From Verrucomicrobiota bacterium (GTDB lineage Bacteria; Verrucomicrobiota; Kiritimatiellia; JAAZAB01), in the NCBI GenBank assembly GCA_043814705.1, contig JBDRJR010000122.1, positions 9,295-73,294 of the forward strand: a DNA stretch of 64,000 bases, given 5' to 3'. Positions 16,288-38,014 of the stretch are shown one piece after another; within the stretch, counting starts at the first letter, position 1, and every line of letters starts with the position of its first letter. Below the pieces are notes generated by a model, which saw nothing but the letters and a program-made list of their open reading frames with translations, was not told the DNA's origin and did not search any database. Position numbers and translations under genes: made by a program.

Positions 16288-16417
16288 GAAATTGGAAATC
16301 AGAAATTGGTGCAACAACGGAATCTCGCCTCTGTAAAATGCGTTTCGTTATTTTAATTCGGTTTGTTTGCATCAACAGCATAAGAACATGAAGTCCGAAT
16401 TTCCAATTTCTAATATC
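16288..16417. repeat. MITE-like element, copy 2 (GAAATTGGAAAT inverted arms) in the spacer between the E2 and E1 genes
   Basis: Left arm gaaattggaaatcagaaattgg, right arm gaatttccaatttctaatatc. A 7-bp hairpin agcgttc/gaacgct follows. Confidence 0.6.
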
Positions 16418-21102: not shown

Positions 21103-21158
21103 AACACCTATCTCCTTATATTATTTGGTTTCCCTAAAAAGGGGTATTTATACTTACA

Positions 21159-21449: not shown

Positions 21450-21616
21450 ATATCCACTACCCTCCTTTATTTGGTTTGTTACCCTGTTCCCCGCAACACA
21501 ACGTGTCCGGGCTTGTTTTAATGCATAGGCATTTCAACCTTGCGGTTCCCCGAACTGCGACTCCACCAGCTTGGTGCAGGTGCCGTTCGTAAGAACGGCA
21601 AAGCCGAAAGCCTAAT

Positions 21617-23566
21617 TTACTTCTTCTTATCCTTGTCATCCACCATCTCAAAATCGGCGTCAATGACGTCATCACCGCCCTTGGCGGGACCCCCGTCTGG
21701 AGCCGCCTGCTGTTGGCCAGGTTCGCCTGCCGCCCCGCCTTCGGGCGGAGTTTGCTGTTTAGCGCCTTTGGCACGCGCATACAGGTCGGCGGATACCGCC
21801 TGCATTTCGGTGTTAAGCGCTTCCATGGCACTGCGCAGGGCATCGCTCGCGCCATCCTTAATGGCCGCCTTGAGTTTTTCGACCGCCGCTTCCACGCCGG
21901 CCTTTTTGGCCGCATCAATCTTATCGCCCTGCTCTTTAAGCAATTTTTCCGTTTCATAAACAGTGGCATCGGCCTTGTTTTTAAGTTCCACGCCTTCGCG
22001 GCGTTGTTGGTCATCGGCGGCATGTTGTTCAGCGTCCTTGACCATTTTTTCGATCTCGCTCTTGTCGAGACCGCTCGTGGCGGTGATCGTGATTTTTTGT
22101 TCCTTGCCCGTGCCCAGGTCCTTGGCGCCCACGTGCAGAATACCGTTGGCATCAATATCGAAAGCAACTTCAATCTGCGGCATGCCCCGGGGCGACGGCG
22201 GAATGCCGTCCAGGTGAAAACGGCCAATGGACTTGTTATCTCCGGCCATTTTACGCTCGCCCTGGAGCACGTGGATTTCCACCGAGGACTGATTGTCCGC
22301 GGCGGTACTGAAGATTTCGCTCTTGCGGGTGGGAATGGTCGTGTTGCGCTCGATCAGCATGGTGAAGACACCGCCCAGCGTTTCGATGCCCAAACTCAAG
22401 GGCGTCACATCCAGCAACAGGACGTCATGCACTTCACCCTTCAAAACACCGGCCTGGATAGCCGCGCCGACCGCAACCACCTCGTCGGGATTGACGCCTT
22501 TATGCGGATCTTTGCCGAAAATTTCCTTGACCTGATCCTGGACCTTGGGCATGCGGGTCATGCCGCCGACAAGCACAACCTCGTCAATTTTCGAAAATTC
22601 AATGCCGGAATCCTTCATGCAGGCGCGCACCGGACCGACCGAACGCTCAATGAACGCATCCACGAGTTGTTCCAGCTTGGCGCGTGTCAGGGTGACGTTA
22701 AGATGCTTGGGCCCCGTGGCGTCGGCCGTTATGAAAGGCAAATTAATATCCGTCTGTTGGGCCGTGGAGAGTTCGCACTTGGCTTTCTCGGCGGCTTCCT
22801 TGAGGCGCTGGATGGCCATGGCATCTTTCGAGAGGTCAATGCCATTGTCCTTTTTGAATTCGGTAACCAGCCAGGTAATGATGGCCTGGTCAAAATCGTC
22901 GCCACCCAAGTGGGTATCACCGTTGGTGGCTTTGACCTCGAATACGCCGTCGCCGATCTCGAGGACGGAGATATCGAAAGTTCCGCCGCCCAGGTCATAA
23001 ACCGCAATTTTTTCGTCCTTTTTTTTATCCAGCCCGTAGGCCAGCGAAGCCGCCGTCGGCTCGTTGATAATGCGCAGAACCTCGAGCCCGGCGATCTTGC
23101 CGGCATCCTTGGTGGCCTGACGCTGGCTGTCATTGAAATAAGCCGGCGTGGTAATGACCGCCTGGGTAATCTTCTCGCCCACATAGGCTTCGGCATCGGC
23201 TTTCATCTTCTGCAGGATCATGGACGAAATTTCGGGCGGCGAATAGATTTTATCGCCGATCTTGACATTGGCATCACCGTTCTTGGCCCGGACCACCTCG
23301 TAGGGTACCAGCGTAATCTCGCGCGCCACTTCCTCGAATTTGCGTCCCATAAAGCGCTTAATGGAATAGACCGTGTTTTTTGGATTCGTCACCGACTGGC
23401 GCTTGGCCGCCTGACCAACCAGCCGCTCGCCGCTCTTGGTGAAAGCCACAACGGAAGGAGTGGTGCGCATCCCATCCGCATTGGGAATAACCACCGGCTG
23501 GCCACCTTCCATGATGGCCATGCATGAGTTAGTCGTGCCTAAATCAATGCCTAATACTTTTGACAT
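21617..23566 (-). CDS. dnaK: Chaperone DnaK (Hsp70)
   Basis: [16 protein letters not shown] and the rest of the ATPase and substrate-binding domains. It lies directly upstream of groES-groEL on the same strand. Confidence 0.97.
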
Positions 23567-24013
23567 TGGCTTGTTCTCCTAAAAGCAATCAATTTTTATC
23601 ATCAAAATATAAATTTACAATGATATAGTTAGCAAGGAATATGCCAAGATACTGTTTATTGCCAGCATCATAATAATATCATGTTGAATATAAGCTAAAT
23701 ACAACTAATTTATTTTTTTATCATTTTATGACTTCTCGCCGTATTGCGCCGTTTTGTCTCTTTTAATTAGAAAAGTGAGACATTTTTGTGTTGTATTATG
23801 GCGCATATATTGACTGCACACAAAACCGGACTGGAAATCATTGATGTCGAAATCGTGCTTGCATTATCATCATTAATTTCATTAAGTCCTCCGCTTACAG
23901 ACCAAACGACAGAGTGGATATCACCAGCATGGCCGTTGTCTAACATCCCGCCTTCGTCCCGACTCTCCAAGAGGTCGAAACTACGGCGGGCAAACCAGCG
24001 TCAGGGACCGGAT

Positions 24014-24772
24014 ATGGATGCCGCGCTATTTAATCTTTCACTCAGTCACTGGTGTCTGGCAATATTATGCGGCCTATTGGTGGGGTTCAATAAGACCGGC
24101 ATGCCCGGGGCAGGAATTTTTGCCGTGCCCCTGATGGCCATGATTTTCCCAGCGGGCAAATCCACCGGCATTTACTTGCCCATGCTGATCATGGGTGACG
24201 TGTTCACTCTGCTCTATTATCGGCGCCATGCCCAGTGGCGCTATGTTCTGCGGCTGTTGTCCTGGGGTGCGGCCGGCATCCTCATGGGCTTCTGGGTAAT
24301 CCGGCATTATCAGATGACCGACCTGCACCTCCAACGGCTGATTGGCGTCATTGTCCTCGTAATTCTCGGGATGGGACTCTGGATGAGCCGGCGCCCGAAT
24401 GCGCTGGCCGTGCCGCACGCCTGGTGGTTTGCCGCCTGCATGGGCCTGATCGGCGGATTCACCACCATGACCGCCAACGCCGCCGGTCCAATCTGGATCG
24501 TTTACCTCCTGGCCATGAACTTGAATAAGCGCGAATTCCTCGGTACCAGCGGCTGGATCTATCTCATCTTGAACCTGTTCAAGGTGCCTTTTAGCTGTGC
24601 CCTCGGCTTTATCAGCGCCGACAGTCTGATCTTCGATTTAAAACTGGCGCCGGCCGTGGCATTGGGCGCCGTAATCGGCATCCTTACCCTTAACCGCATT
24701 CCCCAGAAAGTCTTCGATATCATCATCCGCATCCTAACCGCCCTGGCCGCGCTGAAATTGTTGCTTGGGTAG
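24014..24772 (+). CDS. TauE/SafE (DUF81) family sulfite/anion exporter-like membrane protein
   Basis: Two repeated 4-TM halves with an internal GxxxG-rich pattern. The start is taken at MDAALFNL, because the longer ORF begins inside the AT-rich island. Confidence 0.65.
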   Translation: MDAALFNLSLSHWCLAILCGLLVGFNKTGMPGAGIFAVPLMAMIFPAGKSTGIYLPMLIMGDVFTLLYYRRHAQWRYVLRLLSWGAAGILMGFWVIRHYQMTDLHLQRLIGVIVLVILGMGLWMSRRPNALAVPHAWWFAACMGLIGGFTTMTANAAGPIWIVYLLAMNLNKREFLGTSGWIYLILNLFKVPFSCALGFISADSLIFDLKLAPAVALGAVIGILTLNRIPQKVFDIIIRILTALAALKLLLG

Positions 24773-24974
24773 AACCGCGCTGAACAATGGCCCCGCCAAA
24801 ACACCCCGCCAAAACAACCTTGACACCGGGAAAACAGCATTGACAATACCGTCAATAAACGAACATTTTTTCTTTAAAAATTTTTCGCAAGGAAAGTTCG
24901 AATGTACAGGCAACCGGGTTTTACACGCGGAGCGCAATGGCATGTTGGGCAAGCGTAACGGAAAGGAAAGCTTT

Positions 24975-25778
24975 ATGGTAAATAGCGAAGCAACTATGTT
25001 GCCGTGTGTTGATTTTTGCGGACTCAAGATAACACGGCTCGTTCTGGGCGCCAATCCGTTTGGCGGCTACAGTCATCAAAATGAACGGCGTGACAACGAG
25101 ATGCGGGCGTACTACACGATCGAACGCATCAAGGAAACTTGGGCGCGCGCGGAAGCCGCCGGCATTAACACGATGATTACAAACAACGAGACCAGCCATG
25201 TCATTCAAGCGGTGCGCGAGTACATCGGTAACGGCGGGAAACTCCAGTGGATTGCGCAGATCAATGGACGAAGCAAGCCCGAGATGATCAAAGCCATTGA
25301 CGAAGCAGTGGACATCGGATGCAAAGCGCTTTATTTCCATGGCGCCCAAACAGATGATGTTTACAGCAGGAAAGACGATGAAACATTGCGGATCTGGTGC
25401 GATCATGCCCGATCACGTGGTGTACCCGTGGGGGTAGCCGGCCACGCTCCGGAAGCGCATTTATGGATAAACGGCTTGGATATTGTCGATTTCCACGTCG
25501 TGTGCTTTTTTAACTGCGGCAGTCTGCACGATGGAAAGGGAAATAAATTCAAACTGAAAGACATAGGTCCTGCGGTCGAATGCGTGCGTCGGATCAAGAA
25601 ACCGTGTATTGGCTACAAGATCATGGGTGCCGGCCGGATCGACCCGCGCATGGCGTTCGAATATGCTTTTGATCAAATCAAGGCCACGGACGTGGTAAAT
25701 GTCGGTATGTACCGCGGCGACAAAGACGACATGCTTGAAGAAAATGCGGCCATGGTGCGTGAAATTCTTGGCGGCTAA
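24975..25778 (+). CDS. Hypothetical protein (possible TIM-barrel enzyme)
   Basis: 268-aa ORF with an RBS-like aggaaag upstream of ATG 24975. It shows alternating beta/alpha periodicity and has no recognisable family signature. Confidence 0.4.
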   Translation: MVNSEATMLPCVDFCGLKITRLVLGANPFGGYSHQNERRDNEMRAYYTIERIKETWARAEAAGINTMITNNETSHVIQAVREYIGNGGKLQWIAQINGRSKPEMIKAIDEAVDIGCKALYFHGAQTDDVYSRKDDETLRIWCDHARSRGVPVGVAGHAPEAHLWINGLDIVDFHVVCFFNCGSLHDGKGNKFKLKDIGPAVECVRRIKKPCIGYKIMGAGRIDPRMAFEYAFDQIKATDVVNVGMYRGDKDDMLEENAAMVREILGG

Positions 25779-26040
25779 GGCGCTACGGTAAAAGCAACCT
25801 GATTGATGGGGTTGTCATTAGCAACACTGGCCCACGGATGCGATAGGCGCGCGCCGGTGATGCGTGACGTTCTAACTCGCGGCAGGGTGGCACACCTTCT
25901 GTTTGCCGCCGACATATTGGATTTATTGATAGCAAAGCGACCGGCACTTGTTTTCGCTCCCATCCACCGACACTCGCCCGTTGCACCATAATAAAATGTT
26001 GCCGATGCAACATGGACGAGATGCAGGCCGTTGCCGGCAT

Positions 26041-26078
26041 GTAACAGTTAGCTTCACGATCGTGAAGCTAACTGTTAC
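26041..26078. promoter_or_regulatory. 38-nt perfect palindrome (17-bp arms, 4-nt centre atcg) between the upstream gene and trpS
   Basis: gtaacagttagcttcacg atcg cgtgaagctaactgttac is an exact inverted repeat. It is followed at 26088-26112 by a short GC hairpin plus a T7 run, which looks like an intrinsic terminator. Confidence 0.6.
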
Positions 26079-26208
26079 ATAACCACCGCCCGTTGAGCGG
26101 CTGTTTTTTTCTTTGAATCCAGCCTCAGATTTCACTATGCTTCCCTTTTGTGCAAGCGATCAAGGAAGCGGCCACGCGGAGCGCTCAGGCGCAGAGGACA
26201 AAAACACA

Positions 26209-27171
26209 ATGAGAGCATTATCCGGCATTCAACCTTCCGGGAAACTGCATATCGGCAATTATTTCGGCATGATGAAGCCCGCTTTGGAACTTCAGGAAAA
26301 AGGCGAGGCCTTTTTGTTCATCGCCAATTATCACGCCCTGACTTCAATCGCCGAAGCCGAAGCCCTGCGCACGCTCACGCGGGACGTAGCCCTCGACTTC
26401 CTGGCCTGCGGCCTCGATCCCGAGCGCACGGTGTTTTACCGTCAGAGCGATGTCCCCGAAGTCCATGAGCTTGCCTGGCTGTTGTCCATTGTCACACCCC
26501 TGGGACTTCTGGAACGCTGTCATTCCTACAAGGACAAGGTGGCCAAGGGCGTCCCGGCCAACCACGGGCTTTTTGCTTACCCGGTCCTGATGGCCGCGGA
26601 CATCCTGGCCGTCCAGGCTGACGTCGTCCCCGTCGGCCAGGATCAGAAACAGCACGTCGAGGTCACGCGCGACATTGCCATCAAGTTCAACCAGAAATTC
26701 GGCGAAACATTCAAGATCCCATCCCCGATGATTCGCGCAGGCGTGGCCGTGGTCCCCGGCCTGGACGGCCAGAAAATGTCGAAATCCTACAACAACACGA
26801 TTGAACTGTTCGCGTCCCAGGCGGAGACGCGCAAGGCCATTATGCGCATCGTGACCGACAGCAAAACCGTCACAGACCCGAAGGACCCCGCGACCTGCAA
26901 CGTATTTGCGCTCTACAAGCTGTTTGCGACCGAGCCAGAGCGCGCGGCCATGGCAACGCGCTACCGCGCCGGCGGCCTGGGTTACGGGGAAGTCAAAAAA
27001 GCGCTGTTTGAAAAATTCTGGGCCGTGTTCGAGCCATTCCGGCGCCGGCGAGAAGAACTGCAGAAGGACCCGGATCAGGTCGAGCGGATTCTCCAGCACG
27101 GTGCGGCGCGGGCCCGGGAAGAACTTAGCAAGACCTTAAAGGCCGCCCGCCGGGCCGCGGGGCTGGAGTAA
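26209..27171 (+). CDS. trpS: Tryptophan--tRNA ligase
   Basis: Class I HIGN and KMSKS motifs. The protein is TrpRS-sized (~320 aa) and has the GIQPSGKLHIGNY N-terminus. Confidence 0.9.
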   Translation: MRALSGIQPSGKLHIGNYFGMMKPALELQEKGEAFLFIANYHALTSIAEAEALRTLTRDVALDFLACGLDPERTVFYRQSDVPEVHELAWLLSIVTPLGLLERCHSYKDKVAKGVPANHGLFAYPVLMAADILAVQADVVPVGQDQKQHVEVTRDIAIKFNQKFGETFKIPSPMIRAGVAVVPGLDGQKMSKSYNNTIELFASQAETRKAIMRIVTDSKTVTDPKDPATCNVFALYKLFATEPERAAMATRYRAGGLGYGEVKKALFEKFWAVFEPFRRRREELQKDPDQVERILQHGAARAREELSKTLKAARRAAGLE

Positions 27172-27600
27172 ATGAAGAATGCAGAATGAAGAATGTAGAA
27201 TTAAGAATCCTGTGCCTTATCCACCAAAACCCGCTATAAAAAAATAAGAAAAGAAACCGGAACATTGCCCGCTAAACACTAGCCAAACGTATTTGAAATT
27301 TTCAGACCAAGGGAGGGCGGGCATGTTGCCCGCCGAGCCGGACGGCGACACGCCATCCCTCCTTTTATATTTAGCGTTAGAGTTCTGCAAAATAGCAAGA
27401 AAGCCGGTCATAGACCGGTGCTACACATTCGAATGTTATGCGCAAGTGCAATGTATTGAAATGCTTACGGTGTAGCAACGCTCTGCGAGCGGTGTCTTCA
27501 ATGCCTGTTTTGCATAACTCTAATTTAGCGTAATTTCGCGTGTTTAGCGGGTAAATTCTTTGGGTCGCGCGGGCTCGGCCCGCATTGGGATAAACGCAAC

Positions 27601-28341
27601 ATGCCGATTCAGGAAGAATACAAGGTCAAGCTGGAAGTGTTCGAGGGTCCGCTGGACCTCCTGCTCTACCTCATCAAAAAGGACGAGGTGGACATCTATG
27701 ACATTCCCATCGAGCTGATCGCGCGCCAGTACATGGAATACCTTGGCCTGATGCGGATGCTGGATCTCGACATTGCCGGCGAGTTCCTCGTGATGGCCGC
27801 CACGCTCATGATGATCAAGAGCCGCATGCTCCTGCCGCCGGAAGAGCGGCCCGCGCTGGAGGCCGAGGAGGAAGACCCGCGCTGGGAACTCATCCGCCAG
27901 TTGATCGAGTATAAGAAATTCAAAGATGCCGCGGCCAACCTGCAGGAAATGGAATCTTTGGCGGGCAACATGTTCCTGCGCAGTGCGGAGGATCCGGTGG
28001 TTGTGGTGGAACAGCCGGGCGTCGGGCTGGAGGACGTCACCATTTTCGACCTGATTGCGTCCTTTAACGAGGCGCTCAAGCGGATCCAGGTGAATGAAAT
28101 CGGCGAAATCATGGCCGAGCGCTTCACGGTGGCCGACGGCATCGAGTCCATCTTGGGGCGCATTAAGCGCGAAACACAAGTAATTTTTGCCACCCTGTTC
28201 CAGCCGCTCAGCACGCGCCATGAAATTATCATAACCTTCCTGGCACTGCTGGAGTTAATTCGCCTGCGCCAGGTGGTGGCCCGGCAAGAGGCGGTGTTCG
28301 GCGATATTGTAATCATGCGGCCGGAGGTTGAGGGAGGATAA
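27601..28341 (+). CDS. scpA: Segregation and condensation protein A (kleisin)
   Basis: N-terminal FEGPLDLLLYLIKKDEVDIYDIPI signature. Confidence 0.85.
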   Translation: MPIQEEYKVKLEVFEGPLDLLLYLIKKDEVDIYDIPIELIARQYMEYLGLMRMLDLDIAGEFLVMAATLMMIKSRMLLPPEERPALEAEEEDPRWELIRQLIEYKKFKDAAANLQEMESLAGNMFLRSAEDPVVVVEQPGVGLEDVTIFDLIASFNEALKRIQVNEIGEIMAERFTVADGIESILGRIKRETQVIFATLFQPLSTRHEIIITFLALLELIRLRQVVARQEAVFGDIVIMRPEVEGG

Positions 28342-28487
28342 GGGGCAAAGGCACAAAGGAGCAGAGGGACAAAGGGGCAGAGAAATCGAGCGAATGCTCA
28401 GCAGTTTGATACGCAAATTAAACAGCAAGAGGCCGGACTGAGCTTTGTGCCTCTCGATCGCTCTGTGCCTTTGCCCCTTTGTGCCTG
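28340..28487. repeat. Imperfect inverted repeat (~19-bp arms, about 100 bp apart) made of RRCAAAGG octamer tandem units, in the scpA-scpB spacer
   Basis: aggggcaaaggcacaaagg ... ctctgtgcctttgcccctt. The arms are reverse complements. Confidence 0.6.
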
Positions 28488-28504
28488 ATTTAAAAAGGAT
28501 TTTT

Positions 28505-29446
28505 ATGACATCAGAAACCAATCAACCGACCAAAGCGAATGCTCTTCCGGAACTCAAACAGGTCCTGGGCGCCCTGTTGTTTGCCGCCCGGAAACCGATT
28601 GCGGCGAGTGAGTTGTGCGGGATATTGGCACAAGTGGCCCAAAACGGCGAAGACACCACCCGTGCATTCGGCAAAATCAAGGAGAGCGATATTCGGGCGG
28701 CCCTCGAACAATTGAAGACCGCGCTGGCCGAACGCAAGCTGGGCCTTATCCTCGTAGAAGTGGCGGGCGGGTTCCGGTTCCAGACGGATCCCTCCGGCGG
28801 TCACTGGGTGCGGCATTTGTTGAATCTGGACAAGCCGTCGCGCCTTTCCAAGCCGGCCCTGGAAACGCTGGCCATTATCGCGTATCGTCAGCCGACGACC
28901 CGCGCCGAAATTGAGGCTTTACGCGGCGTCAACGTGGACGCCATGATGCGCCACTTGCTGGAACTGCAGTTGATCCGCATCGTTGGCCGCAGTGACCTGC
29001 CGGGTAGACCGCTGATGTACGGAACGACCCAATTGTTCCTGGAACATTTCGGCCTGAGCAGTGTCAAGAACCTGCCGGGCGTCGAACAGTTGTCGCGGCG
29101 GGATGCGGAACGCGTCAAGAAGGAAACCGACGCCGGAGCGGCGAAGACGGACGACGGACCTGAAAATACAGACGCCGGACGCCAGGCGCCGGACGCCAGC
29201 TTGGAGAAGACGGACCCTCCTTCGCCAGAGCGCTTGCCCCTACGCGAAGCCGCTTCGGCAGGACAAGTCGGAGGACAAGCGACGGACGACGGACCAGAGA
29301 CGACAGACGACCAACAGCAAACAGCGGAGGAAGAGAAGGAAGAAACCGAAAAAGATGAGGATGAAGACAAAGAGTACGACGAAGACGAGGAAGATGAAGA
29401 AGACGAAGATGATGATAAAGACGAGGACGCTGAAGGAAGGGAATGA
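28505..29446 (+). CDS. scpB: Segregation and condensation protein B with a ~110-aa acidic low-complexity C-terminal extension
   Basis: ScpB winged-helix core (LETLAIIAYRQPTTRAEIEALRGV). The tail TDDGPENTD...TDDGPETTDD...EEDEEDEDDDKDED is encoded by GNCGGAC/GACGAC heptamer repeats. Confidence 0.8.
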   Translation: MTSETNQPTKANALPELKQVLGALLFAARKPIAASELCGILAQVAQNGEDTTRAFGKIKESDIRAALEQLKTALAERKLGLILVEVAGGFRFQTDPSGGHWVRHLLNLDKPSRLSKPALETLAIIAYRQPTTRAEIEALRGVNVDAMMRHLLELQLIRIVGRSDLPGRPLMYGTTQLFLEHFGLSSVKNLPGVEQLSRRDAERVKKETDAGAAKTDDGPENTDAGRQAPDASLEKTDPPSPERLPLREAASAGQVGGQATDDGPETTDDQQQTAEEEKEETEKDEDEDKEYDEDEEDEEDEDDDKDEDAEGRE

Positions 29447-29449
29447 ACC

Positions 29450-30547
29450 ATGCATGTTGCCGAGTTGAGAAAAAAAATCGATGCGCTGGATCGGCGCTTA
29501 GTCAGCCTGCTGAATGCGCGCGCCCGGGTGGCCGTGCGGATCGGACAGTTAAAGCAGGTATCGGCTGTTGACGTGTATGTACCCGCACGCGAAAAAACCG
29601 TGCTCGCGCACGTTCAACGTGAAAATCACGGGCCATTAGGCAAGGAAGCGATGGACTCCATTTACCGGGAGATCATGTCCTCCACGCGTTCCTTGGAACG
29701 GCAGGTGCGCGTGGCCCATTTTGGCCAGGCCACCACATTCACGCACCAGGCCGCACGCCTGCGTTTCGGCGCCAGCGTGACTTACATTCCCTGTGAAACC
29801 ATTTCCGACGTTTTTGAAAAAGTCCGCAATGGCCAGGCGGACCATGGCGTCGTCCCAATTGAAAATTCGACCGAGGGCGCGGTAACTTACACCCTGGATG
29901 AATTCGCCCAGACACCATTGAAGATTTGCGCGGAAATTTACCTGCCGATTTCACACCACTTGATGGCTCGCCACGCGCCACGAGTGGCCGCCAATCCGTG
30001 CCGGGGCATCCGGCAGGTGGTCAGTCATCCGCAAGTGCTTGCGCAGTGCCGCAACTGGTTGCACACCGAAATGCCCGGGGTAGAAATCGTGCCGGCAACC
30101 AGCACCGCCCGCGCGGCGGAAATGGCTGTTCAGGATCGCCGTGTGGCGGCCATTGGCAGTATTCTGGCGGCAGAACATTATCATTTACAGGTGCTGGCGG
30201 CGGAGATTCAGGATCTAAGCGGTAATATGACCCGCTTTCTGGTGATCGGCAAGTCGTTTGGGTCTCCCACCGGCGACGATAAGACCTCGATTTTCTTTGC
30301 GGTAAAGCATAAGGCCGGCACCCTGCACAACGCCTTGGGAGCGCTCAAGAAATACCGACTCAATATGACTAAAATTGAGTCCCGCCCCAACAAATTGAAA
30401 GCCTGGGAATATCTTTTTTTTGTGGATATTGAAGGCCATGTCATGGAACCGCGGGTGCACAAGGCGTTGCGCGAGCTGGAGCGCCATTGCACGCTGATGA
30501 CGGTCCTGGGGGCTTATCCCCAGGCACCGGAGGCCGCAGAAGACTGA
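29450..30547 (+). CDS. pheA: Bifunctional chorismate mutase / prephenate dehydratase (P-protein)
   Basis: N-terminal CM domain (LRKKIDALDRRLVSLLNARA), PDT domain, and C-terminal ACT domain (ESRP, LFFVDIEGH). Confidence 0.85.
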   Translation: MHVAELRKKIDALDRRLVSLLNARARVAVRIGQLKQVSAVDVYVPAREKTVLAHVQRENHGPLGKEAMDSIYREIMSSTRSLERQVRVAHFGQATTFTHQAARLRFGASVTYIPCETISDVFEKVRNGQADHGVVPIENSTEGAVTYTLDEFAQTPLKICAEIYLPISHHLMARHAPRVAANPCRGIRQVVSHPQVLAQCRNWLHTEMPGVEIVPATSTARAAEMAVQDRRVAAIGSILAAEHYHLQVLAAEIQDLSGNMTRFLVIGKSFGSPTGDDKTSIFFAVKHKAGTLHNALGALKKYRLNMTKIESRPNKLKAWEYLFFVDIEGHVMEPRVHKALRELERHCTLMTVLGAYPQAPEAAED

Positions 30548-30668
30548 CGACGGACGGCAGATGACGGACGGTAGCCCGGAAAACGGAAAAAGCAAACGTC
30601 GAACGCTCAACGCTGAACGCCCAACGTCCAATGGAAAACGAAGAACGAAGAACCAAGAACAAGGAACG
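30541..30668. repeat. Composite heptamer-repeat block (GACGRCG x4, AACGYYS x5, GAACNAA x5) beginning at the pheA stop codon
   Basis: gactgacgacggacggcagatgacggacgg ... aaacgtcgaacgctcaacgctgaacgcccaacgtcc ... gaacgaagaacgaagaaccaagaacaaggaacg. This is near-identical to the block at 7230-7310. Confidence 0.8.
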
Positions 30669-30713
30669 ATTTCTTATTCTCATTGACCATTTCCGCCGAA
30701 GGCGGATCCGCCT

Positions 30714-31856
30714 ATGGCGGAAACCATTCTCCATGAGCCGCTCATGAAAAACATCGCCCATTCGTGGATCCTGGATTTGAAGATGTATGAGCCGGGCAAG
30801 CCAATTGAGGAAGTGGCGCGGGAACTTGGGTTTGCGTCCGTGGATGACATCATCAAGCTGGCGTCCAACGAAAACGCCCTGGGACCCTCACCCCTCGCCT
30901 TGCGGGCAATGCAACGCGCGGCCGCCCAAATGCATCGCTATCCCGACAGCAGTGCGCATTTATTACGGCGCGCCCTGTCGAAAAAACTGGGCGTCAAGCC
31001 GGATCAGCTCCTGATCGCCAACGGCGGCAATGAGATCATCGAGTTCATCGGCCACGTGTTCCTGGGTCCGGACGTGGACATGGTTGTCGCCGACCGCGCC
31101 TTTGCCATTTACCGGCTGATCGGCGACATGTTTCGCGCGCGGACCATCAGCGTGCCCATGAAAAATTTTACGCACGATCTGGACGCCATGCTGGCGGCAA
31201 TTACACCCCGCACACGCGTGGTCTTTATTGCCAACCCCAATAATCCCACCGGAACCATGGTCAACGGTAAAGCACTGGACCTGTTTATGCGGCATGTTCC
31301 GGAACACGTTGTCGTGGCACTGGACGAGGCTTACGTCGAATTACTGCCCGAGGATCTTCAGCCCGACACGCTTCAACACGTCCGCGAAGGGCGAAAAATC
31401 ATTATTATACGGACATTTTCCAAAACTTACGGATTGGCCGGCCTGCGCATCGCCTATGCCGTGGCGCCGGAAGAGGGCATTCAACTGATGCATCGCATCC
31501 GCCAGGCATTTAATTTCAACGCCATGGCCCTGGCCGCCGCCGAGGCCGCGCTGGCCGACGACGCCTTCGTCTGCAAAACACGCCGCATGATCCAAGCCGG
31601 CCTGAAGCTGTTTGCGGAACACCTGCCGCGCATGGGAATTGCCTATGTGCCCTCCGTGACTAATTTCATGCTGGTCGAGACAGGTCAGGCGCGCGCAAAG
31701 TTTCACGCCCTGCAGAAGGAAAAAATCATTGTGCGGCCCATGGACGGCTACGGCCTGCCCGACCATGTGCGTATCACCGTCGGCACCCGCGCGGAAAATG
31801 AACAGTGCCTCAAGGCGCTTGCCCGCGTCCTGCACAAGCCGGAACCGCAGTTTTGA
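30714..31856 (+). CDS. hisC: Histidinol-phosphate aminotransferase
   Basis: Class II aminotransferase with a PLP-lysine context (RTFSKTYGLAGLRIAY), N-terminal LASNENALGPSP. Confidence 0.85.
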   Translation: MAETILHEPLMKNIAHSWILDLKMYEPGKPIEEVARELGFASVDDIIKLASNENALGPSPLALRAMQRAAAQMHRYPDSSAHLLRRALSKKLGVKPDQLLIANGGNEIIEFIGHVFLGPDVDMVVADRAFAIYRLIGDMFRARTISVPMKNFTHDLDAMLAAITPRTRVVFIANPNNPTGTMVNGKALDLFMRHVPEHVVVALDEAYVELLPEDLQPDTLQHVREGRKIIIIRTFSKTYGLAGLRIAYAVAPEEGIQLMHRIRQAFNFNAMALAAAEAALADDAFVCKTRRMIQAGLKLFAEHLPRMGIAYVPSVTNFMLVETGQARAKFHALQKEKIIVRPMDGYGLPDHVRITVGTRAENEQCLKALARVLHKPEPQF

Positions 31857-31899
31857 AAATAGCCGGAAAGGGGGCAAAATGATGGGTTCTTCATAAAAA

Positions 31900-33090
31900 T
31901 TAAATTTTTCCACGCCTAATGGCATTACTGCCGAAGGAATGACGCAATGCATCCACCGCCTGATCAATTTTCTTGTTCCGGCTGTCCGGCCCCCTGCCGG
32001 ACAATGCCGCAAACAATTCCGGCTGTGCCGGCGCGGCCTGATCCAGGCGCGCAAGATTACTCACGCCGAACCCCACCAACCGAATTTTCCGTTTTACGCG
32101 CGCACACTCAAACAAGGCCAGCGCGCAGGCAATCAATTCTCGATCGCTATTGAGCGCCGTGGAAAATGACGTTTGCCGGGTAATGGTTGCAAAATCACCA
32201 AACCGCAATTTGATCCGGGCGGTTTTGGCCAGTTTTCCGGATTTACGCAATCGTCCGCCAACTTCCTCCGCCAACTCCAACAGGCGTTGACGGACCCGCT
32301 CCATATCAGGTTCATCATACGGAAACGTATATTCATTGGAAATGCTTTTCTCTTCCCAATGTGTAATGACCGGACGGTTGTCACGGCCCCGGGCCAGATC
32401 AGCCATATCCGCCGCACCCTTTTTCCCAAACAAGCGCTCCAATATTCCTGGATTCAGCGCCTGCAATTGACCAATTGTCCGGATGCCTTCCTTGGCCATT
32501 CGGGCACCGGTGACTTTGCCGATCCCCCACATTTTGGTTACCGGAAGCGGCGCCAGAAAAGCCATGATCTCAGGCGCCGTTACCGGGACCACCGTCAAAC
32601 CATCCGGTTTGTGCATGTCGCTGGCCATCTTGGCCAGGAACTTATTGGGAGCAACCCCCACCGAAGCCGTCAATCCCGTCCGTGTCTTGATGCGTTCCTT
32701 TAATTTTGCGGCGATTGTCACCGCATCACCCCATATCCGCAAGGTCCCGCTGACATCAAGGAAGGCCTCATCCAGCGAGAGTGGTTCGACCAGCGGCGTA
32801 AACTCCTCTAAAATGTCCATAATCCGCGCGGAAATTTCCGCATAACGTTCCATGCGCGGCGGCACAAATACAGCCTGCGGACATAATTTGCCGGCGGTCC
32901 GCGACGGCATGGCGGAATGGATACCATAACGGCGAGCCTCATAGGAACAGGTGGCAACCACGCCGCGCTGATCCGGTGGAGAACCGACGACCAGCGGGAG
33001 CCCGCGCCACTCCGGATGATCCAGGGCCTCAATGGCCGCATAGAATGCATCCATATCCACATGTAGGATTGTTAAAAAAGAGGCGGGCAT
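31900..33090 (-). CDS. dinB: DNA polymerase IV (Y-family)
   Basis: ILHVDMDAFYAAIE, SYEARRYGI and the little-finger domain. The start is taken at MPASFL. Confidence 0.85.
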   Translation of the reverse strand: MPASFLTILHVDMDAFYAAIEALDHPEWRGLPLVVGSPPDQRGVVATCSYEARRYGIHSAMPSRTAGKLCPQAVFVPPRMERYAEISARIMDILEEFTPLVEPLSLDEAFLDVSGTLRIWGDAVTIAAKLKERIKTRTGLTASVGVAPNKFLAKMASDMHKPDGLTVVPVTAPEIMAFLAPLPVTKMWGIGKVTGARMAKEGIRTIGQLQALNPGILERLFGKKGAADMADLARGRDNRPVITHWEEKSISNEYTFPYDEPDMERVRQRLLELAEEVGGRLRKSGKLAKTARIKLRFGDFATITRQTSFSTALNSDRELIACALALFECARVKRKIRLVGFGVSNLARLDQAAPAQPELFAALSGRGPDSRNKKIDQAVDALRHSFGSNAIRRGKI

Positions 33091-33243
33091 TAACTCTGCC
33101 TGATCGCGCAAGGTTTTGCATTTCGTTTTGAGCATCGAAAGTCAATGGCGTATCACGCGCGGCGCCGATCACGCCGGCAATTCCGCGATGTGCAGATCGG
33201 CCAAGCATGCCACGGCTCTTTTTTCCTGAGAAGCGGAAAAAAC

Positions 33244-34074
33244 CTACGGCCTGGCCCACTCGTGCACAAGGCAATCAAATCCGGGAACCGAGACTTTTTC
33301 CGCGCTATTTGTCAAGTCCGTCCTCTTCAAGGAAAACTCGCGCGGTGCCGCACCGGAATTGAAGACGAAGGTGACTATCCTGTCGCGCAACTGCCAAGTC
33401 GCACCGGATGCGTTTTCACCCGACAATTTGACAAGATCGTCCGCCCGCTTGCCATCAACGATGAAATCCTCGTATTTTGCAAGCAGGCTGTTCGCCTGGC
33501 GGATCGGCGCGATCAACTGGTCGTCCATGCCCCACACCCCGGTAAATGACCAGCCGGCGGTACTGCCGTAGCGAGTGACCAGCTTGATGATGTCGATTTT
33601 CAAACTTTGGAACATTGAGCAACGCTGACCCCAACTGCCGCCCGCACTCGGCCCGTATAGGCTGATTATGATCTTTGGCAGAGGCTGGCCTTCTTTCAAT
33701 CCCTTTGCCAGCGCCGACCGCAAAGCCTCAACACGATTTTCACCGCCAGGGGGAAACGGACCGCCGGTACGCGCCATCGCAATGTCCAACACCGGCGCAA
33801 GCATCGCCCAGTCCACGCCATACGCCTGGCGGCAATAATCACCCAGCTTAAGGCCTTTTTCAATCCTGTCCGTCGGCCAGCCGCTGTAAATGCCAACCGT
33901 GACACGCGGATTGACACGCCGAGCCGAATCGTGGAGTAATTCAATAAAGCGGCGATGCTGCCAGCATTTGAAATCCGTCACCTTCTCGTAAAGCTCCCCG
34001 CAGATCTCATCGGTTGTCGGGAGATGATCCAGCTTGGCATAGTCATGAAAGGCCTGGAGGCACCGCTTGCACAG
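33244..34074 (-). CDS. C-terminal continuation (277 codons) of the same reading frame after the in-frame TGA at 34075-34077; candidate pseudogene or recoded gene
   Basis: The 93 nt between the two predicted ORFs are open in the same frame (…PLDI-TGA-LCKRCLQAFHDYAKLDHLPTTDEICGELYEKVTDFKCWQ…). Confidence 0.5.
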   Translation of the reverse strand: MCKRCLQAFHDYAKLDHLPTTDEICGELYEKVTDFKCWQHRRFIELLHDSARRVNPRVTVGIYSGWPTDRIEKGLKLGDYCRQAYGVDWAMLAPVLDIAMARTGGPFPPGGENRVEALRSALAKGLKEGQPLPKIIISLYGPSAGGSWGQRCSMFQSLKIDIIKLVTRYGSTAGWSFTGVWGMDDQLIAPIRQANSLLAKYEDFIVDGKRADDLVKLSGENASGATWQLRDRIVTFVFNSGAAPREFSLKRTDLTNSAEKVSVPGFDCLVHEWARP

Positions 34075-35637
34075 TCAAATATCCAATGGCTTACGCTTCT
34101 CCGGTGGAATATCTTTACGGTAAGGGGCCCCGGAGATTTCATGATCAATCCAGATGCCGTCCATGGCGTTGACCTCAATGCGTTTGTTCAAGACTTCGCA
34201 GTATCGCGCCAGCCATGGATTGTTCAGTCCCGCTCCGGCGTCGGATGGCGGAGTGTCATATTTCCCTCCGTCCAGAACGTGCGTCAGGCAAACGTTGTAG
34301 TTGGCACTCTTTCCCCCTTTGTAATTCTCGGCCCGATATTCGGGGTGCGCCTCGCAATACGGCTTGGCGGCGGATGTATAGCGGACATGCAAATACGCCC
34401 GCGCCTGCATATCCCGGCGCTTGGCCTCCTGGATGACGGGAAAGCTGAACTCGATCGTATCATTGGAAGCTCCATACACCGGCTCATCAAATTGAGGCAT
34501 GATTGTGTTCAGCCCCCAGGTTGCAAACTTCTCCACAAAGATCTTTTGCACAGGGATTGGCTCGCGCTGGAGCATTGTTTCGGCAATCCAGACCGATGTC
34601 TCGAGTTTCTTAGGTGTCAGCGTTTTGCCGGCGGGTATGAGCGCAACGGCTCCCTCGCGGCACACGCGCTGTTTGCCGTCGGTAATGCACCAGACCAGCT
34701 TGGCCGGCAATACGGCGTCGGCGGCCACATCGAAAATAAAAGTCCGGGTAAAAAACACCGTGCCGCCTTTTGCAAGCGCATCCTGCGCAGACATGGATTT
34801 GCTTTTAATGTCGTCACCCTTCGCCTCGCACGTGACGGCATATCGCGTGCCGGGAGTAAGCTGGACCCTGTTTGTGACAAACCAATGCGCGATTTTCACA
34901 CCCTGCTCAGCGGTGACGGTTATTTCCTTCCCGGCGGGAAGCGCATAGACCAATTTGCCGGAATCGGCCTCGTGAATATTCAGGTTCCGGAAGTGGAGGG
35001 TTCCGGAATAGGTGGAATTGTCGGGCCACTTCAAGAGCAGTGGCATGACGCCGGCGGCGTTGTCAGGCGTTATGACTTCTTTCGAGAATTTGCGCCAATC
35101 GAAGGAACCGATGAATTTTATAATGGGGGTGTAACTGATAGTGCCGCCGACTGCTCTGATGTAGCAAAAGTTCAGCTCTATCCCCTCGCAAAGATTTTGC
35201 ATGTCCGGGCGATAGCATATTTCCGTCCTTTTTTCCCCCTCGGCAATGACCGCGCGCGCCTGTTCGTCCACTGAAGCAACCTTATGGTTATAACCGCTCT
35301 CATCCGTTCCTATAACCTGCAGTTTGCTCAAGGAATATGCGCCCGGCAGGCTGAGGACAAGGGTATATTCATCATCGGCCAGCCCTTCCACCGGCATAAT
35401 CCTGGCATGCAGCATCAATTTCCCGCCCGGTGTCACTTCGACCGCATGTGTGAGAAAGGGTGTCTGGCTGACGGGTAGCGCTTCCAGTTTTACCGCTGAT
35501 ACTTGCCCTATGACCGCGGGCGGAGCTGTTTTGGCGGTATCCGTATCCTTAACTTTACAGCCGCAACAAAATGAAAGAAGCAACGCGCTCGACACACTGA
35601 CCAGCATCCTGCGATTTTTCATCAGCTTTCTCATCAC
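34075..35637 (-). CDS. Lipoprotein, N-terminal 520-aa portion of a putative ~797-aa glycoside-hydrolase-like protein; ends at an in-frame TGA
   Basis: Lipoprotein signal MMRKLMKNRRMLVSVSSALLLSFCC-GC. The downstream ORF 33244-33981 continues in the same frame with no other stop. Confidence 0.6.
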   Translation of the reverse strand: MMRKLMKNRRMLVSVSSALLLSFCCGCKVKDTDTAKTAPPAVIGQVSAVKLEALPVSQTPFLTHAVEVTPGGKLMLHARIMPVEGLADDEYTLVLSLPGAYSLSKLQVIGTDESGYNHKVASVDEQARAVIAEGEKRTEICYRPDMQNLCEGIELNFCYIRAVGGTISYTPIIKFIGSFDWRKFSKEVITPDNAAGVMPLLLKWPDNSTYSGTLHFRNLNIHEADSGKLVYALPAGKEITVTAEQGVKIAHWFVTNRVQLTPGTRYAVTCEAKGDDIKSKSMSAQDALAKGGTVFFTRTFIFDVAADAVLPAKLVWCITDGKQRVCREGAVALIPAGKTLTPKKLETSVWIAETMLQREPIPVQKIFVEKFATWGLNTIMPQFDEPVYGASNDTIEFSFPVIQEAKRRDMQARAYLHVRYTSAAKPYCEAHPEYRAENYKGGKSANYNVCLTHVLDGGKYDTPPSDAGAGLNNPWLARYCEVLNKRIEVNAMDGIWIDHEISGAPYRKDIPPEKRKPLDI

Positions 35638-35911
35638 CGCACCTCCTTATTGATGTTATCGTTCTGGATCCGCGTCGGAATTTCCCGCGGCGCTTTGCAT
35701 CCGCTTTCGTCAAAATTACCTGGCCACCGCGAAAAAAATGGCACAGTCGATCAAGATAATCGATGATCGTACTCCTGGAATTTAGCATGTCAATCCTGAT
35801 TTTTTGTCATTTTTCTGATCGTCAACATATAATATTTTGTTTGCCGGCGTGGTCCCAATATGGTAACAATAAACTGCTTATGTTTTATCTCCGTCAACCC
35901 GAGGTCCCGCG

Positions 35912-37429
35912 ATGCTGAACAGGAACGCTTTCGACAACGACCGCTACCTGCGCGAGCAGACCCAGGCCATTCTGGAGCGTGTGCACCGGTTCGGCAACAA
36001 GCTTTATCTGGAATTCGGCGGCAAACTGCTTTTCGACTATCACGCGGCACGGGTCCTGCCGGGTTATGATCCGAACGTCAAGATGCGGCTTTTAAAGCAA
36101 CTCAAGGACCAGGCCGACATTGTCCTCTGTATTTTTGCCGGCGACATCGAACGCCGCAAAATGCGGGCCGATTTCGGCATTTCTTACGATTCCGACGCAT
36201 TGAAACTGATTGATGATATCCGCGAATGGGGTATTGACGTTTTGGCTGTAGTGATTACCCGTTTTGATAACCAACCCGCGGCCAAGTCATTCCGTGACAA
36301 ACTGGAGCGGCGCGGCGTCAAGGTCTATTGTCACCGGGCCACCAGCGGTTATCCGACCAACGTGGACATGATTGTCAGCCCGGAAGGCTACGGCGCCAAT
36401 GCTTATATTAAAACCCACAAGCCGTTAGTAGTCGTTACAGGTCCTGGACCAGGCAGTGGCAAGCTGGCCACCTGCCTGAGCCAGCTTTATCATGATCATA
36501 TCCAGGGACGCCAAGCCGGTTACGCCAAATTTGAGACCTTTCCAATCTGGAACCTGCCGCTCAAGCATCCGGTCAACGTGGCTTATGAGGCGGCCACGGC
36601 CGATTTGCGGGACATTAATCTGATTGATCCCTTCCACATGGAGGCCTACCAGGCCGCATCCGTAAATTATAACCGGGACGTCGAGGCTTTTCCGCTTTTG
36701 CGGGCCATCTGGGAAAGGATCCTCACTCATGACGCAATTTACAAGTCACCCACGGACATGGGTGTTAACCGGGCGGGGTTCGGCATCGTGGATGACCAGG
36801 CCGCGCAGAAGGCCGCATGCCAGGAAATTATCCGCCGCTATTTCCGTTACGCCTGCGAATACGCCATGGGTCTGACCGACCGCGAAACCGTGACCCGGAC
36901 CGAACTGCTGATGCAAGAGGTCGGCGTGCGCCCCGAGGACCGGCGCGTGGTGGAACCGGCGCGCCGGGCGGCCGACGAAGCCCGGCAGACCGGCAAAGGC
37001 AACGCCGGTATTTATTGCGGCGCCGCCCTTGAACTGCCTGATGGAACAATTATAACGGGCAAAAATTCGCTCCTCATGCACGCCGCCTCGAGTGTGATCC
37101 TGAACGCCATCAAACAGCAGGCGGAAATCCCGGATAAGATTCATTTACTCTCAACCCTCATCATGCAGGCCATTGGCGCCTTTAAACGCGACATCCTGCA
37201 ACGCAAGGCCGAAAGCCTGAACCTGGAGGAAACGCTCATCGCGCTCAGCATCAGCTCAACAACCAACCCGGCGGCGCAGATAGCCATGGAAAAACTGAAG
37301 GACCTGCGCGGGGCCGAAATTCACCTGACCCACATACCGGCACCAGGCGATGAGGCCGGCCTGCGGCGGCTGGGCGTCAACCTGACCAGCGACCCGTCCT
37401 TTGCCACGCGCAATTTGTTTTTGGCGTAA
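35912..37429 (+). CDS. DUF1846 / UPF0371 family protein
   Basis: ~500 aa with the KLYLEFGGKLLFDYHAARVLPGYDPN N-terminal signature of UPF0371. Confidence 0.75.
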   Translation: MLNRNAFDNDRYLREQTQAILERVHRFGNKLYLEFGGKLLFDYHAARVLPGYDPNVKMRLLKQLKDQADIVLCIFAGDIERRKMRADFGISYDSDALKLIDDIREWGIDVLAVVITRFDNQPAAKSFRDKLERRGVKVYCHRATSGYPTNVDMIVSPEGYGANAYIKTHKPLVVVTGPGPGSGKLATCLSQLYHDHIQGRQAGYAKFETFPIWNLPLKHPVNVAYEAATADLRDINLIDPFHMEAYQAASVNYNRDVEAFPLLRAIWERILTHDAIYKSPTDMGVNRAGFGIVDDQAAQKAACQEIIRRYFRYACEYAMGLTDRETVTRTELLMQEVGVRPEDRRVVEPARRAADEARQTGKGNAGIYCGAALELPDGTIITGKNSLLMHAASSVILNAIKQQAEIPDKIHLLSTLIMQAIGAFKRDILQRKAESLNLEETLIALSISSTTNPAAQIAMEKLKDLRGAEIHLTHIPAPGDEAGLRRLGVNLTSDPSFATRNLFLA

Positions 37430-37648
37430 AGCGGAATCAAACAGCACACATGCACGGACGGCCCCTTTACCCGCTCCAGATGACCCCGCCCAAGTTATTT
37501 GTCATGAGCACCAACGAGGACTTGACGGCACAGATTCCAAGATTGAACGAAAGAAAGAACTTTTCCAATATAAGAGCCTACTCGTTTTGTCAGGCTTCTC
37601 CTTTGACAACTTTTTGAACTGCTTCATTGGCGTCCCATAGGGCCGCCG

Positions 37649-37800
37649 AGGGCTGTAGACTTTGGGCTGTAGGCCGTAGGTTCAAACAAGCAAAATGTAT
37701 GTGCAAAAAACCGGAACTGTGGTTTTAACAATGGGTGTAAATACCCTTTGTTTTCCTACAGTCTACGGTCCACAGCCTACGGTCTGAACGTCCTGTGGGA
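37649..37800. repeat. Inverted arrays of GGGCTGTAG/CCGTAGG heptamer units flanking a ~70-nt AT-richer core (MITE-like)
   Basis: gggctgtagactttgggctgtaggccgtagg ... cctacagtctacggtccacagcctacgg. A related GGGCTGT x3 tandem lies inside comEC at 40395-40440. Confidence 0.6.
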
Positions 37801-38014
37801 TGCTATTGGAACTGCTTGGAAAATGGAAACGTTCTTGTGGACTTTGACGCAAGGACAGGACACAATCACGGCACCAAGTTTAGAATTCGGCAAGGCCAAT
37901 GGGCCAATCTGTATTCTGAGACAAAACAAATTTTCTAAGAATCAGCCAACAACACGTTGTCGGCACCACGCATGCTCGGGGCCAGTCCGTGCATATGTGC
38001 AACTACGGTTGGAT

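Follow-up and report, generated by a model that had tools for sequence, protein, structure and literature searches.

In the 64-kb window analysed here, a stretch of a Kiritimatiellia genome (PVC group), tandem arrays of heptanucleotide units occur at many sites, among them a composite block at positions 30541-30668, directly after the gene pheA. These period-7 arrays are real and statistically solid. A lag-p scan with a threshold of at least 16 of 21 self-matches detected 15 period-7 arrays in the window, compared with 0.05 in first-order Markov shuffles, while the other periods from 2 to 13 and period 15 gave 0 to 3 arrays each and the harmonic period 14 gave 10. The original prediction, made from the letters of the window alone, had proposed pervasive tandem heptamers of several recurring families and had singled out intergenic DNA, shuffled, as the sequence against which a period-7 signal should stand out. 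In accordance with both statements, a second control in which every intergenic segment was shuffled separately (50 shuffles) showed nine intergenic period-7 arrays in the window versus 0.0 in the shuffles. Per kb, there were 0.67 arrays in intergenic DNA and 0.10 in coding sequence. An assembly artefact was ruled out, because independent assemblies carry the same arrays in the same spacers.

Tandem Repeats Finder (TRF), run on the whole window, returned 56 rows, 21 of which had a period of 7 and spanned 2.9-7.6 copies; the usual array size is 4-7 units (Table 1). The five families originally listed grade into one another, and two of them, AACGYYS and GAACNAA, proved to be parts of a single AAC-N4 array in one phase. 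The positions given for the arrays were right overall, with some corrections: the runs at 9815 and 9874 contain only 2-2.5 units, the supposed GAATGNA array at 9781 is part of a CCGTAGG-like run, and the arrays at 29137 and 29280, taken as spacer arrays, lie within the reading frame of ScpB.

The block at 30541-30668 lies in a neighbourhood of scpA, scpB, pheA (chorismate mutase/prephenate dehydratase, recognised by its PDT, CM_2 and ACT domains) and a class I/II aminotransferase gene. At the 3' end of pheA, the final two codons with the TGA stop are followed by four to five decayed GACGRMN units, then by CCCGGAAAACGGAAAAAGCAAAC and lastly by ten AAC-N4 units. The ten units run AACGTCG, AACGCTC, AACGCTG, AACGCCC, AACGTCC, AATGGAA, AACGAAG, AACGAAG, AACCAAG and AACAAGG, that is, five AACGYYS, one AATGGAA and four AACNAAG, with the AAC almost invariant (29 of 30 positions kept). 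The lag-7 signal of the block extends over 30577-30671. The array announced at 30541 is present but decayed by itself: the segment 30541-30576 gave about 12 of 21 lag-7 matches and is recognisable chiefly through its orthologue at L009, one of the relatives' loci L001-L017 with which the window was compared, where the array aligns with it unit for unit.

Comparison with these loci revealed that the block follows a general formula, (GACGRMN)n-GAAAACGGAAGAAGCAAAC-(AACRYCS)n, which was found at at least four non-orthologous sites and each time in sense orientation. The linker 19-mer GAAAACGGAAGAAGCAAAC, with up to three mismatches, occurs at seven places (window, L001, L004, L005, L007, L009 and L014), and at all seven it stands in sense orientation, with a GACGRMN array on one side and an AACRYCS array on the other. 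Its context is the sequence after pheA in the window and L009, the scpA-scpB interval in L001 and L004, and the inside of the scpB tail in L005, L007 and L014. A further copy is located in the window itself, where the segment 7226-7325 showed 74% identity over 100 nt to 30545-30640 and has an exact 19-mer in common with it. Random windows gave 47% identity on average and 58% at most, and the two window composites are therefore homologous, while the earlier description of one as nearly a copy of the other was generous. In addition, the radical SAM spacer of the window shares a 20-mer, GAATGACCGTAGGCCGTGGA, with the spacer that follows pheA in L005.

Such recurrence could reflect a small non-autonomous mobile element, copied by transposition or retro-copying, of which the remaining arrays would be debris or relatives. 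The same architecture and linker at no fewer than four non-orthologous sites, the lineage-variable presence and the single orientation relative to transcription are all consistent with it, and these genomes do hold other small intergenic elements (a hairpin family and an element of about 200 nt with inverted ends). We nevertheless consider this origin quite improbable, as the copies showed no terminal inverted repeats, no target-site duplications and no associated transposase, and recombination or template switching between arrays gives the same pattern. Most arrays also lack the linker, and the ten linker matches in viral contigs were all chance matches without arrays. With no inverted ends and with variable boundaries, the composite likewise differs from repetitive extragenic palindromic (REP) sequences and miniature inverted-repeat transposable elements (MITEs).

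The inheritance of the arrays was followed through PheA orthologues of 80-89% identity, which came from metagenome-assembled genomes labelled Kiritimatiellaeota, Kiritimatiellia or Verrucomicrobiota and from ten metagenome contigs (L005 and L010 are the same sequence, and L013 is contained in L014). In an exact-protein look-up for near-identical strains, the PheA of the window was not on record. The loci fell into an array-rich set (L001, L002, L004, L005, L007, L009, L014, L015 and L017) with 2.73 arrays per 10 kb and an array-poor set (L003, L006, L008, L011 and L012) with 0.16 arrays per 10 kb, compared with 0.2 in unrelated control DNA. Among the sister genomes, JAPLSY01 and JBAZEM01 are array-rich and JAQUMN01, CAZTWL01 and CAYYBV01 array-poor. 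The arrays are thus lineage-specific: within one Kiritimatiellia clade, some members carry them and others are almost devoid of them. In a neighbour-joining tree of PheA, which as a single-gene tree is suggestive only, array-poor loci were interspersed among array-rich ones.

Orthologous spacers differed in the family that they carry. Across lineages the pheA spacer holds GACGNNN, AATCAGA/AGGTCAG or GCGTGAA units: it starts with GACGNNN units on the stop codon in the window, L009 and L001-L003, with TAAATCAGAGGTCAG in L005, L007 and L014, and with GCGTGAAGCGTG in L004 and L017, and no array was found in the pheA spacer of L006 and L008. The C-terminus of PheA varies right at the array start (APEAAED, APEAD, APEAREA and APESAN). 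An AATGNAG array begins on the TAA stop of trpS in the window, L014, L007, L012, L003 and L004; L005 and L008 have a decayed version, and L006 has none. The number of units is the same in the composites of the window and L009 and differs among trpS orthologues. The composites of the window and L009 are 72-78% identical, which matches the four-fold sites of pheA (73.6%), so that there is no sign of extra constraint on the composite and purifying selection on it was ruled out. Taken together, the arrays are heritable and drift at an approximately neutral rate; some lineages show them decayed, and occasionally a whole array has given way to another family.

The position of the arrays relative to genes was as first described for four of them, which lie at or near the stop codons of pheA (30545-30547), trpS (27169-27171), the radical SAM gene (9773-9775) and an fmdB-like gene (44386-44388, minus strand). 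In many cases the array starts within about 10 nt of the stop, for example at -4 for trpS and -3 for an Rnf subunit gene, and the offsets in pheA and trpS orthologues range from -10 to +3. Other arrays abut start codons, for example CCATTAACCATTCATG before the aminotransferase gene in L014 and AAATCRA before the fmdB-like gene. Several are internal to operons (rnf, nuoA-nuoB, E1-E2 of 2-oxoacid dehydrogenase and scpA-scpB-pheA) and must therefore be transcribed through. Since T-free units contain no stop codons, some arrays are also translated: they were found in ScpB (acidic tail), E2 (linker), a ComEC-like protein (two loops or tails), the M48 peptidase (last residues) and, in L005, ScpA (tail). 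A role as back-up stops in three frames was ruled out, given that the commonest units, GACGACA and AACGAAG, are T-free and extend open reading frames (ORFs).

Oriented by the local genes, the sense strand of the arrays contains 35% A, 27% G, 25% C and 12.6% T. Spacers without arrays are balanced (26/24/26/24), which rules out general intergenic composition as the source of the T-depletion. The claim of strong T-depletion on one strand accordingly stood for the block at 30541-30668 (8 T in 128 nt) and for the sense strand in most cases, but not for the array past the fmdB-like gene, which is T-rich in sense, nor for AATGGTT and AATTTCC, which occur in both directions in the window. In the window and its relatives, GACGNCN arrays run with the genes, and so do all three that lie on the minus strand. 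Orientation was also scored by the flanking long ORFs in 63 independent IMG/VR contigs, the GACGNCN ones carrying at least four units; the p-values of all array statistics are optimistic, since orthologous and same-family arrays were counted as independent. In these contigs 24 flanking ORFs were sense and 4 antisense to GACGNCN (p 2e-4), and 24 were sense and 8 antisense to AATGNAG (p 0.007), whereas no orientation bias was found for AACNYCN (25 vs 20) and TCAGANN (22 vs 17).

The sense RNA of the arrays is predicted to fold weakly, with -0.114 kcal/mol/nt compared to -0.218 in length-matched coding windows (p 5e-7) and -0.178 in simulated random-heptamer arrays (p 5e-4); the predicted value for the antisense strand was -0.165 kcal/mol/nt. 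The composite in sense orientation folded no better than its shuffles (z -0.3 to +1.2) and showed no U-tract, and Rfam gave zero matches at gathering thresholds over the whole window; a structured RNA was ruled out by these results. A scan of the window for tRNA and tmRNA genes likewise found nothing. At the conserved start of the aminotransferase gene (30745, ATGAAAAACATCGCC) and in its orthologues in L004-L008 and L014, no Shine-Dalgarno-like sequence was seen upstream in any lineage, while scpB has AAGGA upstream, which suggests that the use of Shine-Dalgarno sequences in this clade is mixed. Because the aminotransferase gene lacks such a sequence with or without arrays, an unstructured leader is compatible with initiation and the arrays are not needed for it.

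Folding of the opposite strand raised the question of a one-way terminator, in which the AACGYC array and the A-rich linker would form a G-U-rich hairpin followed by a U-tract in antisense RNA, while sense RNA would be read through. The strongest terminator-like site in 20001-40000 is indeed on the pheA block's minus strand (30630-30593; 17 pairs and CTTTTTCC), a second one is at 7304-7279 on the minus strand, and their antisense folds reached -23.5 kcal/mol (z -2.9) and -16.0 kcal/mol (z -2.3) while the sense folds were unremarkable. However, only these two window copies reach about two standard deviations. The copies in L009 and L005 (8985-9045) have a long G-U stem with z of only -0.8 to -0.9, those in L001, L005 (9788) and L014 were either weak or folded less well than shuffles, and positions 9850-9900 of the window hold a two-unit remnant without a linker. 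AACATCC variants cannot form the hairpin, the stems lean on many G-U pairs, and the other families are left unexplained. There is also no obvious source of antisense transcription, because the neighbouring genes are co-directional. Features of an intrinsic terminator were thus absent from the sense strand and seen only in the antisense of some AACGYC arrays, and we regard a terminator function as very doubtful.

A second functional reading draws on the arrangement of the units. In many arrays a 3-nt core is kept at 7-nt spacing (GAC, AAC, AAT and CCATT) and the remaining positions drift; between the window and L009, core positions differed in 7 of 42 and spacer positions in 23 of 56 cases (hand count). 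A pooled test for uneven column conservation gave a weak signal (p 0.012; p 0.12 with the window taken by itself). HutP recognises UAG-N4 triplets and TRAP (G/U)AG triplets, and the arrays could similarly be messenger RNA platforms for a multimeric RNA-binding protein that reads a RAY core (GAC, AAC or AAT) every 7 nt, which would make them a lineage-specific post-transcriptional regulon controlling translation or decay of the flanking cistrons. This would account for the variation of the other four positions within arrays and between orthologues, for an orientation that follows transcription, for sense RNA that is predicted to be single-stranded, and for the placement at start and stop codons with typically 4-7 units; similar suggestions have been made for TAACTGA repeats and for the heptamers of Nostoc. 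It is, in our view, a possible but rather unlikely reading. There is no single motif but many unrelated units (AGAGGTC, AATTTCC, ACGCTCC, AGCCCAC and GCGTGAA), the arrays evolve at approximately the synonymous rate, and no candidate protein was identified. Moreover, orthologous spacers exchange one family for another and close relatives have no arrays, which argues against an essential regulon. Unlikely, too, is the fuller version of this idea, an undescribed post-transcriptional system in which a multimeric protein on RAY cores at cistron boundaries would tune termination-reinitiation or decay across housekeeping operons, the array-poor sister lineages having lost the protein, with the AACGYC composite as an antisense-only G-U terminator in one sub-variant.

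Contingency loci, in which gain or loss of 7-nt units switches genes through frameshift or promoter spacing as in the phase-variable genes of host-adapted pathogens, were also considered. Seven is not a multiple of three, so that each unit shifts the frame, and phase variation through heptanucleotides has been reported for Haemophilus and for E. coli NeuO. In contrast, the genes flanking the arrays here are housekeeping genes (pheA, trpS, nuo, rnf, 2-oxoacid dehydrogenase and scpAB), the arrays are located past stops or in dispensable tails and not in 5' coding regions or promoters of surface or virulence genes, and the unit number is conserved between the window and L009. Phase variation by these arrays is therefore highly improbable.

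With moderate confidence we favour the reading that the arrays are lineage-specific heptanucleotide microsatellites, born by slippage and passively tolerated, of the same general kind as the short tandemly repeated repetitive sequences (STRRs) of cyanobacteria. Replication slippage and unit turnover would create and renew the arrays, consistent with neighbouring units being most alike and with super-periods of 14 and 21 nt. Now and then an array with its flank may be copied from one array-bearing locus to another, which would explain why the composite recurs at no fewer than four unrelated sites. Since a unit of 7 nt shifts the reading frame, arrays would survive only where the frame is irrelevant, that is, past stops, before starts, in operon spacers, in disordered linkers and in C-terminal tails. 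A filter acting on the transcript may in addition retain units of reduced alphabet with the A-rich, U-poor strand as sense; the resulting segment of mRNA would be almost structure-free and without U-tracts and, where translated, hydrophilic, as T-free units have no stop codons. The arrays would then most likely be passive unstructured spacers in polycistronic mRNAs rather than sequence-specific signals. We infer that slippage, copying between loci and a selective filter together produced the observed pattern.

Several observations weigh against this explanation. Slippage was not observed, and no copy-number polymorphism was seen among the loci compared, which held no near-identical strain pair; the window and L009 even have equal numbers of units. 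Neither a fixed 3-nt core with a drifting 4-nt remainder nor the re-use of a small set of families across many genomes is obviously expected from neutral slippage, and both might mean that some factor recognises the arrays. Orientation is filtered in a family-dependent way, given the unbiased AACNYCN and TCAGANN arrays of the viral contigs and the exceptions in the window, and the p-values of the array statistics are optimistic owing to the treatment of kin arrays as independent. Finally, free space past a gene accounts only partly for arrays that start exactly on stop codons.

The arrays and associated elements of the window are listed in Table 1.

Table 1. Heptanucleotide arrays and associated elements of the window, with the corresponding TRF calls (period 7 unless indicated).
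Position	Strand	Array or element	TRF call	Location
4008-4060	+	CAGACGA array	4008-4060	Divergent spacer upstream of citrate synthase (Citrate_synt domain)
7226-7311	+	Second composite: GACGACA x5, AGAATGAGGAAGAAGTAAAC (linker-like), AACGTCG, AACGCTC, AACGTCC, AACTCCC	7227-7257; 7281-7311 (as period 14)	Last ~30 codons of ORF 6474-7316
8532-8644	+	TTGAAAT array (8532-8562) and inverted counterpart, AATTTCC array (8615-8644)	8538-8559; 8624-8643	Upstream of radical SAM gene
9778-9887	+	Short heptamer runs: CCGTAGG-like, GACGTCA, two AACGCTC units		Directly 3' of radical SAM stop
11587-11666	-	AACGAAG-type array, then CCATTTN array	11587-11619	Fills spacer to likely start of alcohol dehydrogenase-like gene
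15841-15872	-	ACGCTCC array	15842-15868	Within E2 acyltransferase gene, linker between lipoyl and E3-binding domains
16390-16417	-	AATTTCC-family array		16 nt past E1 stop, E1-E2 operon spacer
27168-27210	+	AATGNAG array	27171-27208	Begins on TAA stop of trpS
29129-29325	+	GACGCCG and GACGACN arrays	29171-29197; 29280-29311	Translated, acidic C-terminal tail of ScpB
30541-30580	+	Decayed GACGRMN array: GAAGACT, GACGACG, GACGGCA, GATGACG, GACGGTA		Overlaps last two codons and TGA stop of pheA
30579-30597	+	Linker GAAAACGGAAAAAGCAAAC of composite element		19-mer between both array types
30595-30670	+	Continuous AAC-N4 array, ten units in one phase	30602-30631; 30637-30669	
30692-30721	+	Two tandem small hairpins, TCCGCCGAAGGCGGA and TCCGCCTATGGCGGA, in CCATT-type run	period 15	Upstream of hisC-like start 30745
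38245-38284	-	CACGCTY array	38254-38280	Within ComEC-like reading frame
40407-40444	-	AGCCCAC array	40416-40437	Within ComEC-like reading frame
42989-43022	-	GACGCCG array (minus-strand reading)	42992-43018	Encodes last residues of M48 peptidase, ends at its stop
44342-44379	-	GAACNAA-family array	44342-44379 (as period 14)	6 nt past stop of fmdB-like gene (small Zn-ribbon)
44645-44678	-	AAATCRA array		Reaches ATG of fmdB-like gene
52010-52067	+	AGAGGTC array	52011-52062	Begins on stop of FMN-binding Rnf subunit gene, within rnf operon
58669-58703	+	AATTTCY array	58679-58698	~10 nt upstream of nuoA-like start
59060-59095	+	AATGGTT array	59062-59093	Fills nuoA-nuoB spacer

TRF reported the array upstream of citrate synthase with periods of both 7 and 21; its 21-nt super-period, CAGACGACAGACGACTGTCTA, is present in 2.5 copies with 100% matches. 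TGTCTAC replaces every third unit there, which gives short GACAG/CTGTC hairpins in a divergent promoter region. The TTGAAAT and AATTTCC arrays before the radical SAM gene are reverse complements about 50 nt apart, and the long A-U stem predicted around the start region was not significant (z -1.4). A small palindrome lies between the heptamer runs after the same gene. The conserved domain of ScpB ends at residue 212 of 333, and the approximately 120 residues past it in scpB (28445-29446) form an acidic, low-complexity tail with repeats of period 6, 7, 9, 18 and 21. This tail, especially 29100-29446, ends 3 nt before the ATG of pheA, and in relatives it holds the composite heptamer element. The scpA-scpB spacer (28340-28382) contains 2.7 copies of a period-16 repeat, AAGGGGCAGAGGCACA, where relatives have the heptamer composite.

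The two hairpins upstream of the aminotransferase gene belong to a different class of element; orthologous spacers show CCATTAACCATTCATG without hairpins. A hairpin family of the form (C)TTGTCCRCC - GTAGCTTnTAGCRAn - GGYGGA, with the short form TCCGCC-N3-GGCGGA in the window, was found in L001 (~3165-3205), L003 (~7810-7840 and ~11140-11180), L007 (~3565-3595 and ~5130-5160) and L012 (~550-580). Its stems are compensatory between copies (GTCCGCC/GGCGGAC, GTCCACC/GGTGGAT and ATCCTCC/GGAGGAT), its copies often lie within heptamer arrays, and it looks like a REP-like element. The MITE-like element of about 200 nt has inverted ends (GTGTGTCGAATTYGGTTTCC ... TTTTTCGAACCRAATTCGMCACAC) and occupies two different spacers in some lineages only: that of pheA in L001 (3195-3400), L002 (~1170) and L003 (11180-11390), and that of trpS in L003 (7840-8090) and L012 (575-780). 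It is found mainly in the array-poor L003 and L012. Among the IMG/VR contigs, L073 (6756-10330), L031 (2112-11232), L072 (2467-6869) and L068 (1394-3087) carry 4-10 arrays of several families per approximately 10 kb, and L068 and L072 contain GACGNCN and GCAAAC-(AACNCCS)n types as in this clade; these contigs, classed as viral, may be phage or mis-binned bacterial DNA.

The arrays are a further case of a known type of repeat, the STRR-like long simple sequence repeat (LSSR) built of heptamers. Heptanucleotides are the dominant or commonest class of LSSR in many bacterial genomes, and slippage of the polymerase has been put forward as the cause (Mrazek, Guo and Shah 2007, as cited in PMC4679880 and PMC4692102). 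Genome-wide heptamer families are described in Calothrix, Nostoc, Xanthomonas, Beggiatoaceae, some Bacteroidetes and Geobacter, with function unproven in all (PMC4679880, PMC4692102, PMC2700814). Heptamer repeats, at first called a hallmark of heterocystous cyanobacteria, are thus not peculiar to them, and their presence in the window is not deeply unexpected, although the finding in another phylum is new; no literature linking Kiritimatiellia to tandem repeats was found. As far as prokaryotic LSSRs are covered by those citing sources, they resemble the arrays in having tandem 7-nt units longer than chance, a mostly intergenic location, several motifs per genome, a scattered distribution over phyla and differences between close relatives, with slippage as the proposed origin. 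In the window, too, units stand head to tail, exceed the expectation from composition and are depleted in coding sequence, where the cases lie in linkers and tails. Kiritimatiellia is not among the lineages named in those sources, and here a composite of two arrays and a linker and a measured T-poor-sense bias come in addition.

In the heterocystous cyanobacteria, the units are CCCCAGT (STRR1), TTGGTCA (STRR2) and CAACAGT (STRR3), as in Calothrix PCC 7601. The likeness to STRRs noted in the original prediction is borne out in that several heptamer families occur in tandem, are dispersed in non-coding DNA and have no established function, while units, phylum and base composition are different and the host is not a heterocyst-forming cyanobacterium. 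With arrays of three units and up to two mismatches as the test, none of STRR1-3, TAACTGA, GGGAATC, GGGGATT, GGGACCG and TTTTGAA forms an array in the window, and the system is therefore an analogue, not a member, of the cyanobacterial STRRs.

The Xanthomonas GGGAATC and Nostoc GGGGAYT repeats (Rehm et al. 2015, PMC4692102) are similar in being intergenic, typically of at least four units, with conserved and variable positions, located in the same spacers of related species with variable length and sequence, and sometimes arranged as inverted pairs. Their units, however, have G-tracts of at least 3 nt able to form G-quadruplexes, whereas G-tracts are absent from the units of the window, for which a lack of structure is predicted. 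In marine Beggiatoaceae and in some Cyanobacteria and Bacteroidetes, TAACTGA repeats (MacGregor 2015, PMC4679880) also form heptamer arrays: 2-6 units lie within a few nt of starts, often with no evident Shine-Dalgarno sequence, and a post-transcriptional role has been proposed, not shown. Some arrays of the present clade touch start codons as well. They differ in having a single dominant unit that contains two stop codons and lies mostly upstream of starts, in contrast to the many units, most of them at stops, found here. The GGGACCG and MTYCTGA elements of Geobacter metallireducens (Aklujkar et al. 2009, PMC2700814) are likewise short heptamer arrays between and within genes, with four- and five-unit elements present in dozens of copies and annotated as putative global regulatory elements; their units are other ones and the copy number per element is fixed, and a role is putative in both cases.

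For annotation, the stop-free, T-free arrays matter as they lengthen ORFs and give variable C-termini (ScpA, ScpB, PheA and the M48 peptidase). More generally, why repeats of 7 nt rather than of other lengths arise has been a question since Calothrix, with slippage, regulator binding and G-quadruplexes as proposed ideas. The present clade offers a clean natural comparison, in which genomes that share their gene order and 80-89% PheA identity contain either about three arrays in every 10 kb or hardly any, and decayed remnants indicate that the difference between array-rich and array-poor lineages is recent. The gene sets of array-rich and array-poor sisters could therefore point to the factor involved, be it an RNA-binding protein or a variant in replication or repair.

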